6,385 nt of DNA, taken from the IMG/VR virus record IMGVR_UViG_2711768004_000007; one strand, 5' to 3'. A program made the position numbers and the translations under genes. Within the stretch, counting starts at the first letter, position 1; each line of letters begins with the position of its first letter. The DNA comes from a virus. Lineage: Duplodnaviria > Heunggongvirae > Uroviricota > Caudoviricetes. This document shows positions 5,481 to 6,069 of the stretch, piece by piece. Below the pieces are notes generated by a model. It saw only the letters and a list, made by a program, of their open reading frames with translations. It was not told where the DNA came from and did no database searches.

Positions 5481-5564
5481 TTATCCCCAGCGGCAAATCG
5501 AATACACCACCAGCGCCACCGCCATCGCAATTCCTACCGTTGTTAATGCTTCAGGCCAGGTCAT
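5481..5564 (-). CDS. 27-aa hydrophobic peptide ([27 protein letters not shown]), putative single-pass membrane peptide
   Basis: ATG overlaps the TGA stop of the upstream 114-aa ORF (ATGA); GGAGG about 10 nt upstream; hydrophobic core of about 20 residues. Too short for the ORF track. Confidence 0.4.
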
Positions 5565-5905
5565 CGTAAAATATCCTCCACGCTTATCAGTCCGTTCCGC
5601 TCCAGATAACTCATCGCCTTATCCGGTAATTTGCAGTCTGGCTTCGCTTTCCTCAGTTGCCAGGTTAACTGCTTTACCAGCATGGTTAACTCATCGACCA
5701 GACGCTGATATCCCACTGGTTTGTATTCATGCAATTTACCGGCTGGCTCTGCTGCCAGCGATACCAGTGCGATTTCCAGAACAGCAATATCCATCTTATA
5801 TGTGCGGATGATGTCATGGTCGATTGTGCCCGGTATGCACAGTCTCTGTGCTTCAATAGTCTCCTCTGCGTGAGCTATTAACTGCTCTCTGGTAAAAGTC
5901 GTCAT
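5561..5905 (-). CDS. Hypothetical small protein (114 aa), N-terminal domain paralogous to the upstream 55-aa ORF
   Basis: ORF with GAAGGGG upstream; start overlaps the stop of the 55-aa ORF (ATGA). Shares an MTTxT(K/R)E N-terminus and IAL(A/V)SL(E/A)AEP motif with it. Confidence 0.65.
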
Positions 5906-6069
5906 GCCGTAGCCCCTTCTTGATATTTTTCAAACCAGAACACAACCGGCTCTGCTTCCAGCGATGCCAGCGCAATCCGTGCCAGTTCCATTTGTTCACC
6001 ACGGGTAAGCCCGTTTTCAAGCGGGTTTTTAATGAACAATTCAATACGTTCTTTGGTAATAGTGGTCAT
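5902..6069 (-). CDS. Hypothetical small protein (55 aa: [55 protein letters not shown])
   Basis: Perfect AAGGAG 6 nt upstream of the ATG at 6069; stop overlaps the next start. Not in the ORF track (under 60 aa). More plausible than the out-of-frame 63-aa ORF 5853..6044. Confidence 0.6.

Follow-up and report, generated by a model that had tools for sequence, protein, structure and literature searches.

A mosaic accessory-gene array and a portable candidate membrane-microprotein gene upstream of hokD in a lambdoid prophage region

Do three small genes that are tightly coupled in translation necessarily constitute one functional system? The question is raised by the minus strand of IMGVR_UViG_2711768004_000007, a stretch of 6,385 nucleotides (nt) of caudoviricete DNA (the whole of it is referred to below as the window), in which open reading frames (ORFs) of 55, 114 and 27 amino acids (aa) follow one another with overlapping stop and start codons. 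A sequence-only reading of this locus had considered the trio as a possible toxin-modulator, superinfection-exclusion or lysis-timing module. According to our analysis, the trio is ordinary modular phage material, and it probably comprises a mosaic accessory array of exchangeable modules and, separately, a portable gene for a 27-aa single-pass inner-membrane microprotein. Thus, the architecture, the shared domain and the conserved small ORF resembling a membrane peptide have all withstood comparison with related loci, but the idea of a single functional module has not.

The arrangement of the genes is as described in the earlier reading: three consecutive ORFs on the minus strand, linked by ATGA overlaps and each preceded by a Shine-Dalgarno (SD) motif (Table 1). 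At both joints the stop codon of one gene overlaps the start codon of the next, and the SD motif of the downstream gene is located within the upstream gene, as expected for translational coupling. Related prophages have kept this arrangement of overlaps. The 55-aa protein indeed shares an N-terminal domain with the 114-aa protein (BLASTP: 33% identity over residues 1-54, E=1e-5), and AlphaFold2 predicts in both of them a two-helix N-module terminating at an SL(E/A)AEP hinge. The 114-aa protein is predicted to comprise two independent helical modules, and its C-terminal extension, also noticed from the sequence, corresponds to a separate three-helix C-module.

Table 1. Features of the trio and its surroundings (positions in the window)
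Feature	Position	Strand	Remarks
55-aa ORF and protein	5902-6069	minus	stand-alone N-module, predicted helices 6-14 and 23-38, then a low-confidence 15-residue tail
15-residue tail and stop codon of the 55-aa gene	5902-5949	minus	left edge of the constant module travelling with the 114-aa gene
SD motif of the 55-aa ORF, AAGGAG	6081-6076	minus	6 nt before ATG
114-aa ORF and protein	5561-5905	minus	N-module aa 1-54, disordered linker aa 52-62, C-module aa 63-114
N-module of the 114-aa protein	5744-5905	minus	paralogous to the 55-aa N-module; helices 6-26 and 30-51
C-module of the 114-aa protein	5561-5710	minus	three helices; gene ends CGATGA
SD motif of the 114-aa ORF, AAGGGG	5918-5913	minus	7 nt before ATG; inside the tail of the 55-aa gene
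ATGA stop/start overlap, 55-aa/114-aa	5905-5902	minus	
27-aa ORF	5481-5564	minus	candidate single-pass membrane protein; predicted transmembrane residues 6-24; ATG overlaps the 114-aa stop
SD motif of the 27-aa ORF, GGAGG	5579-5575	minus	10 nt before ATG; inside the last codons of the 114-aa gene
ATGA stop/start overlap, 114-aa/27-aa	5564-5561	minus	
Putative hokD promoter	5446-5474	minus	TTTGCG 5474-5469, 17-nt spacer, TAGAAT 5451-5446
hokD/sok type I toxin-antitoxin locus	5307-5439	minus	mostly masked by N
Run of 81 N	5334-5414		
76-aa ORF	6080-6310	minus	phrog_1714
tRNA cluster Met-CAT, Arg-TCG, Arg-TCT	552-801	minus	downstream of the DNA methylase gene
STnc100 small RNA	286-475	minus	RF02076; downstream of the DNA methylase gene

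Database searches place the two larger proteins among phage families of unknown function. The N-termini of both match phrog_660, phrog_60, phrog_3323 and phrog_5117; the 114-aa protein is assigned by PHROG profiles to phrog_660 (8.2e-43), and the 55-aa protein to phrog_3323 (1.3e-19) and phrog_60 (4.3e-18). In GenBank entries, the 55-aa protein is labelled Eaa or EaA-like. The statement in the sequence-only reading that no named family could be recognized agrees with the lack of any Pfam or NCBIfam match for these two proteins at E<=0.1. The Ead_Ea22 (Pfam) and ead/Ea22-like (NCBIfam) models did not match either of them, and DUF551 (PF04448) was not found in any protein of the window, the N-modules being the only part in common with DUF551 proteins. 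A sequence search of the PDB with the 114-aa protein returned nothing under E=0.4, and Foldseek comparison with viral structures returned no match at E<=0.001, only generic helical hairpins.

The relationship between the 55-aa and 114-aa genes becomes apparent from a comparison of about 82 copies of the latter, mostly from viral contigs. The gene upstream is of the 55-aa type in 59 copies, a 61-aa variant in three, and a 121-aa HNH endonuclease in the remaining 20. The last 15 residues are all that these upstream genes have in common, which means that the constant block begins inside the tail of the upstream gene. Further exchange is evident at the "ASL(E/A)AEP" hinge, where N-modules swap: in a 101-aa hinge recombinant (P0093) the 55-aa-type N-module is followed by the C part of the 114-aa protein, and a 198-aa protein (P0128) starts with the 114-aa-type N-module, 96% identical over 53 residues, and continues with DUF551. 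Among database relatives, the 114-aa-type C-module is found with other N-modules as well, and it forms the C-terminus of gp45 from phage N15, orf688 from H19J, an ead/Ea22-like protein from ST64B, and many mosaic proteins of 160-200 aa. We propose that recombination at the hinge and at the gene ends shuffles the N- and C-modules with DUF551, HNH and other domains. Since the modules are shuffled and exchangeable, the 55-aa and 114-aa proteins are better regarded as paralogous modules than as a matched pair. Their place is among the mosaic accessory genes of the Eaa/Ea22/DUF551 type that lambdoid phages carry.

Several peculiar relatives of the 114-aa gene deserve a mention in their own right. 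Besides the hinge recombinant, the natural variants P0064, P0091 and P0093 include a frameshift fusion of the 55-aa and 114-aa genes that encodes 167 aa, and a protein of 114 aa in which an internal deletion joins the N-part of the 114-aa protein in frame to the 27-aa peptide. The C-module occurs with 89% identity in Actinobacillus phage vB_Apl-pPE4 (H30, 12972-13106), an unexpected location with respect to the assigned host, Actinobacillus pleuropneumoniae. A scan of genome contigs with the 114-aa protein yielded one locus only, on the 1.78-kb contig JAJXBQ010000377.1 (L002), which is filed under a metagenome-assembled genome of Segatella copri, yet is 100% identical to an E. coli prophage segment, and which is probably a binning contaminant.

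It would be tempting to consider the trio as one dedicated system, in which two paralogous soluble proteins regulate a toxic membrane peptide. The tight ATGA coupling of the three genes speaks for it, as does the similarity of the 27-aa peptide to type I toxins in size and hydrophobicity. However, the components are not inherited together, natural variants fuse or swap them, and the genes are located in the early region upstream of the antiterminator gene Q rather than in the lysis cassette. A holin or a lysis-timing protein would be expected in the late lysis cassette beside the endolysin, but the 27-aa ORF is in the early region, upstream of both RusA and Q. Moreover, PADLOC reported no match for the trio, and the Rfam match to the antitoxin RNA sok in an unmasked homologous locus (L001) begins downstream of the 27-aa ORF, with no other RNA family found across the ORF. 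Given that the parts are not co-inherited and are positioned upstream of Q, a three-part system is unsupported, and we consider it highly improbable. The parts of the module proposed in the sequence-only reading assort independently, and the analyses we made gave no indication of toxicity.

If the array is a mosaic of accessory modules, the 27-aa ORF at its end calls for a separate explanation. The single membrane-spanning stretch predicted earlier is supported by a 19-residue segment (residues 6-24) with a mean Kyte-Doolittle hydropathy of 2.16, in excess of what is expected of a small single-pass membrane protein (about 19 or more residues with a mean of at least 1.6). The ORF is the most hydrophobic of the 28 ATG-initiated ORFs of 24-45 aa in the window, and in shuffled sequence only 0.3% of ORFs of this length reach a hydropathy of 2.0. 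Tryptophan residues are found at both ends of the peptide (W3 and W26), with E5 on the N-terminal side and R25 on the C-terminal side. It is, however, the comparative data that make the ORF credible, not the window alone.

A degenerate DNA pattern, which fixed several of the codons, retrieved 120 further viral contigs with the 27-aa ORF. Together with the loci collected earlier, they contain 61 nucleotide alleles that encode 40 different peptides, 33 of them exactly 27 aa long; in-frame insertions and deletions of 6 nt are found among the alleles. The family is characterized by the signature M-x-W-P-E-A-F/L ... C-R-W-G, and in 37 of the 40 variants the 19-residue hydropathy is at least 1.6. 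Even the most distant alleles, with only 67-70% nucleotide identity to the allele of the window and a much lower G+C content, retain the start codon, the 27 codons and a stop (TAA or TGA), along with the WPEAF and CRWG termini and the hydrophobic core. The conserved segment is sharply delimited: the sequence past the stop codon changes wholly within 0-3 nt, to give at least 12 downstream contexts. Intrinsic terminators of several kinds are among them, as are the hok promoter and various genes, one of them coding for DUF4222. On the other side, at least four classes of genes are joined to it by ATGA, with DUF551 in 63 of the 120 contigs, the 114-aa-type C-module in 41, the 933W L0139-type gene in seven, and others. 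In all 200 of 200 copies, a GGAGG-type motif is present 5-11 nt (mostly 7 or 10) before the ATG, within the last codons of the upstream gene, whichever it is.

The family is widespread. Of 5426 complete E. coli genomes, 1346 contain a 91-nt segment that includes the ORF, with 1857 occurrences in all, and according to tblastn 95 phage records have a homologue, among them those of 933W, VT2-Sakai, BP-4795 (where the ORF adjoins xis-int) and Av-05; to find protein homologues, a natural 40-aa read-through variant was used as the query. The ORF is also found in 181 plasmid records from Escherichia, Salmonella and Klebsiella, of which 174 are non-mobilizable and which probably include phage-plasmids. 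It was not found in the CPS-53 prophage of E. coli K-12, which carries the DUF551 gene yfdS. In virulent Vequintavirinae-type phages (L092, i.e. Av-05 74413-74493; H110, H112 and H113), an EaA-like gene is followed by the ATGA-coupled 27-aa ORF, which indicates that the cassette has moved between temperate and virulent phages.

Substitutions between the alleles also point to a coding sequence. The pairwise ratio of nonsynonymous to synonymous polymorphism (pN/pS) is 0.32 in the frame of the 27-aa ORF, compared with 0.90 and 1.79 in the other two sense frames, and 41 of 89 single-step variants are synonymous (24.7% expected, p=1e-5). As the search pattern had fixed several codons, the test was repeated on the unconstrained codons 8-24, for which pN/pS is 0.48 and 30 of 71 variants are synonymous (p=0.007). 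The replacements in the sense frame are conservative, with a mean BLOSUM62 score of +0.24 versus -0.43 for all possible changes. We read these data as a sign of moderate purifying selection on a gene that is dispensable and sometimes decaying, and the ORF seems to be genuine.

It must be noted that a number of observations weigh against this interpretation, and several of them favour the view that the ORF is a non-functional, short, young and widely copied stretch at a recombination joint, whose hydrophobicity is incidental. A run of 27 open codons is expected by chance often enough, with a probability of (61/64)^26, i.e. about 0.29. Intact reading frames are not universal either: a 1-nt deletion just after the ATGA is present in 6 of the 80 viral loci to which the 114-aa gene led, and in 8 of 86 loci when L002 and L003 are counted in; for 48 of 1312 genome records the allele with this deletion gives the top match; and the codon for W3 is replaced by a stop in L032 and in phage POCJ13. 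These frameshifted and nonsense alleles persist, with about 4-10% of the copies being disrupted, and in one phage annotation the frame-shifted ORF of 36 aa that results from the deletion has been called as a gene. At all five loci that were inspected RefSeq lacks a gene call for the ORF, and the ORF was not found in the supplements of a paper on small genes of enterohaemorrhagic E. coli detected by ribosome profiling (Ribo-seq) and of an Enterobacteriaceae microproteome study. Nor does the peptide match PADLOC, Pfam or NCBIfam, and its only PHROG match, to phrog_4612, is weak (E=0.011).

The statistics of selection have their own caveats. The sample free of ascertainment consists of the nine alleles that were reached by way of the 114-aa gene only, and its excess of synonymous variants lacks significance (p=0.13); the counts of alleles cannot be taken as counts of independent events, since the copies are mostly close kin spread by recombination. 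In addition, the antisense frame that shares the wobble positions has a similar synonymous excess, so that the choice of the strand is based on the start codon, SD motif and stop codon, on the conservative replacements, and on the lack of a start codon in the antisense. The antisense frame was considered as the selected one and rejected: it has no start codon, its flanks vary, amino acids are replaced in it more radically than would be expected, and its openness follows automatically from the hydrophobic codons of the sense strand.

The joint itself provides another argument for the absence of function. In phage N15 the C-module ends with the same CGATGA, after which comes the unrelated, non-hydrophobic 18-aa gp45.1, and in H19J the C-module is followed by a 196-aa gene, which demonstrates that the ATGA joint exists without the 27-aa peptide. 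On the other hand, a stretch devoid of function would hardly be expected to behave as the family does. Alleles with 67-79% nucleotide identity and very different G+C content keep the start, the 27 codons, the stop, both ends and the core; the replacements are conservative; the stop remains TAA or TGA although the sequence that follows is of at least 12 unrelated kinds; virulent phages have retained the ORF; and such hydropathy is attained by 0.3% of random small ORFs. With these facts taken together, we regard a non-functional ORF as unlikely.

Another explanation is suggested by the neighbour on the downstream side, the hokD/sok locus, which begins right behind the 27-aa stop codon and, being masked, was hidden from the sequence-only reading. 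Little of it is visible in the window: the 5' end of the hok mRNA (GGTGCTTGAGGCTATCTGTCTCA) can be seen at about 5439-5415, and the C-terminus of hokD (...FTAYEPEE*, the last nine codons) at 5333-5307. According to the unmasked homologue L001, the 81 N between them (5414-5334) stand for about 275 bp; the run of N being shorter than the real sequence, coordinates in the window fall short of those in real genomes by about 194 nt. In L001, Rfam identifies sok (RF01794, 117 bits) at 6159-6334, downstream of the 27-aa stop codon. The promoter sequence listed in Table 1 starts 6 nt past this stop codon, and the hok leader begins about 40 nt further. We take it to be the hokD promoter because of its position before the Rfam sok/hok-leader match and by comparison with the hok leader of plasmid R1; a scan for consensus promoters did not report it.

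One could imagine, accordingly, that translation of the 27-aa ORF modulates read-through into the hok promoter or leader, or that the peptide helps Hok in membrane damage and phage release. The stop codon of the ORF is only 6 nt away from the putative -35 element of hokD, and the hok promoter is directly downstream in 45 of the 120 loci sampled with the pattern. In 933W the ORF is directly upstream of hokW/sokW, with the annotated sokW, mokW and hokW all downstream of it, and hokW-sokW has been reported to aid the release of phage Sp5 (PMC8621323). However, the same paper does not mention the upstream ORF, about 60% of the copies have no hok downstream (terminators, the DUF4222 gene or other sequences are found instead), and the copies in Av-05 and BP-4795 have no adjacent hok. 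A functional link with hok is thus unlikely to be general, and as an explanation of the 27-aa ORF we find it very unlikely. Judging from the Rfam match in L001 and the annotation of 933W, the ORF itself has neither a mok leader of its own nor an overlapping antisense RNA, and in Pfam it does not match PF01848 (Hok/Gef), the only hit being DUF883_C with E=0.029, below the cut-off of that model.

We therefore return to the mosaic array with a separate, portable microprotein gene. In such an array, the 27-aa ORF would be translated by termination-reinitiation as the last cistron. The basis of the coupling may be that its ATG overlaps the stop codon of whichever gene is upstream, the last codons of which always supply the GGAGG-type motif. 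The peptide would be produced early, from the transcripts that follow induction or infection, and inserted into the inner membrane; E5 on the N-terminal side and R25 on the C-terminal side suggest, by the positive-inside rule, that the N-terminus would face outwards and the C-terminus inwards. Its most likely role would be that of a non-essential accessory factor in or on the host inner membrane. A more far-reaching version of this scenario, which we consider rather unlikely, sees in the WPEAF...CRWG microprotein a functional, translated effector through which the phage acts on the host inner membrane, and which annotation has missed in roughly one in four E. coli genomes and in classical Stx phages. 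Such an effector could, for instance, act on a membrane protein, alter the membrane potential, affect superinfection or influence when phages are released, possibly together with the neighbouring hok locus.

The array as a whole finds its closest counterpart in the ea and exo-xis accessory genes (Ea22, Eaa/EaA, DUF551) of lambdoid and Stx phages, which are small early genes built from exchangeable N-terminal, central and C-terminal blocks. EaA, Eaa and Ea22 are the names that GenBank gives to neighbours or homologues of the trio, DUF551 proteins are headed by N-modules like those of the 55-aa and 114-aa proteins, and the mosaicism of ea22 in Stx phages has been described (PMC10834534). In BP-4795 the same cassette is found beside xis-int, like the ea/exo-xis genes, whereas in the window it belongs to the rightward early operon and is not located between exo and xis. 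The 55-aa and 114-aa proteins differ from Ead_Ea22 and DUF551 proteins in having no matches to those models. A particularly instructive relative is N15 gp45, which has the same C-module (71% identity over aa 70-114) and the same CGATGA end, and is followed by an annotated ATGA-coupled mini-ORF, gp45.1 (MITTRKCMPAAAVSQETK, 18 aa), which is neither related to the 27-aa peptide nor hydrophobic. In N15 (L005, 38474-38946) gp45.1 in turn overlaps the start of gene 46, so that the genes form a chain of coupled mini-cistrons.

As to the peptide itself, two known groups of short hydrophobic proteins invite comparison. Single-pass inner-membrane proteins of up to 50 aa from E. coli and its prophages form a class studied by Storz and colleagues. 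The 27-aa peptide is similar to them in size and in its single hydrophobic helix, which has aromatic and charged residues on its flanks; the peptide has likewise been missed by annotation and is recognized mainly by its conservation and good SD motif. It differs in that the family is phage-borne and portable, always ATGA-coupled to an upstream gene, and known from sequence alone. Type I toxins (Hok/Gef, TisB, DinQ, Ibs and ShoB) are also short and hydrophobic, and the ORF adjoins a real hok/sok locus. Unlike them, however, it has no promoter of its own and no match to the Hok model of Pfam, it would be the last cistron if expressed, and sok, as matched by Rfam in L001, is found only downstream of it. 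The 27-aa ORF may thus define a previously unnamed family of the small phage-encoded membrane protein kind that has been missed by annotation. A literature search by sequence retrieved no paper containing the peptide sequence, nor did the searchable literature yield a description of the ORF.

A few GenBank entries name the ORF "bacteriophage protein" or "prophage protein". Fragments of it at contig edges (P0027, P0196, P0198, P0200 and others) are named "DUF551 domain-containing protein, partial" without containing any DUF551 sequence, which looks like propagated mis-naming. Clustering at 90% identity had suggested that the ORF might be a detached tail of DUF551; this possibility was ruled out, as the sequences share no segment.

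Small proteins are a recognized blind spot of genome annotation, and the 27-aa family, which is common, extends to Stx phages of the 933W/Sp5 type and yet is mostly unannotated, falls within it. If the peptide is made, it would be a new early phage membrane factor beside hokW-sokW, a locus already linked to the release of Stx phages. Regardless of its role, the ORF offers a simple test case for a tiny gene riding behind interchangeable upstream genes by means of translational coupling, and the trio illustrates how modular shuffling can produce an apparent three-gene system.

The surroundings of the trio agree with its assignment to an accessory array. All genes of the window are on the minus strand. 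Beyond the run of N, a 94-aa ORF is followed by genes for a DUF968 protein, RusA and the antiterminator Q, then by those for a small winged-helix protein and an N6/N4 DNA methylase and, finally, by three transfer RNAs (tRNAs) and the STnc100 small RNA. Such a combination of a tRNA cluster with STnc100 seems to be usual where lambdoid and Stx prophages have their late promoter. Annotated homologous loci belong to a lambdoid (Qin/Rac-like) E. coli prophage, with a block of Cro, YdaT and replication genes upstream of the trio, the trio itself in the early right operon, and hokD, DUF968, RusA and Q after it. We take the region to be the distal end of a mosaic early accessory-gene array, between the replication genes and the hokD-DUF968-RusA-Q block. 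At the other end of the window, the 76-aa ORF matches positions 21-87 of the 87-residue profile of phrog_1714 and its frame is open up to the end of the window, which suggests that its true start is probably further upstream or outside the window; past position 6278 or so, the window departs from the best-matching genomes.

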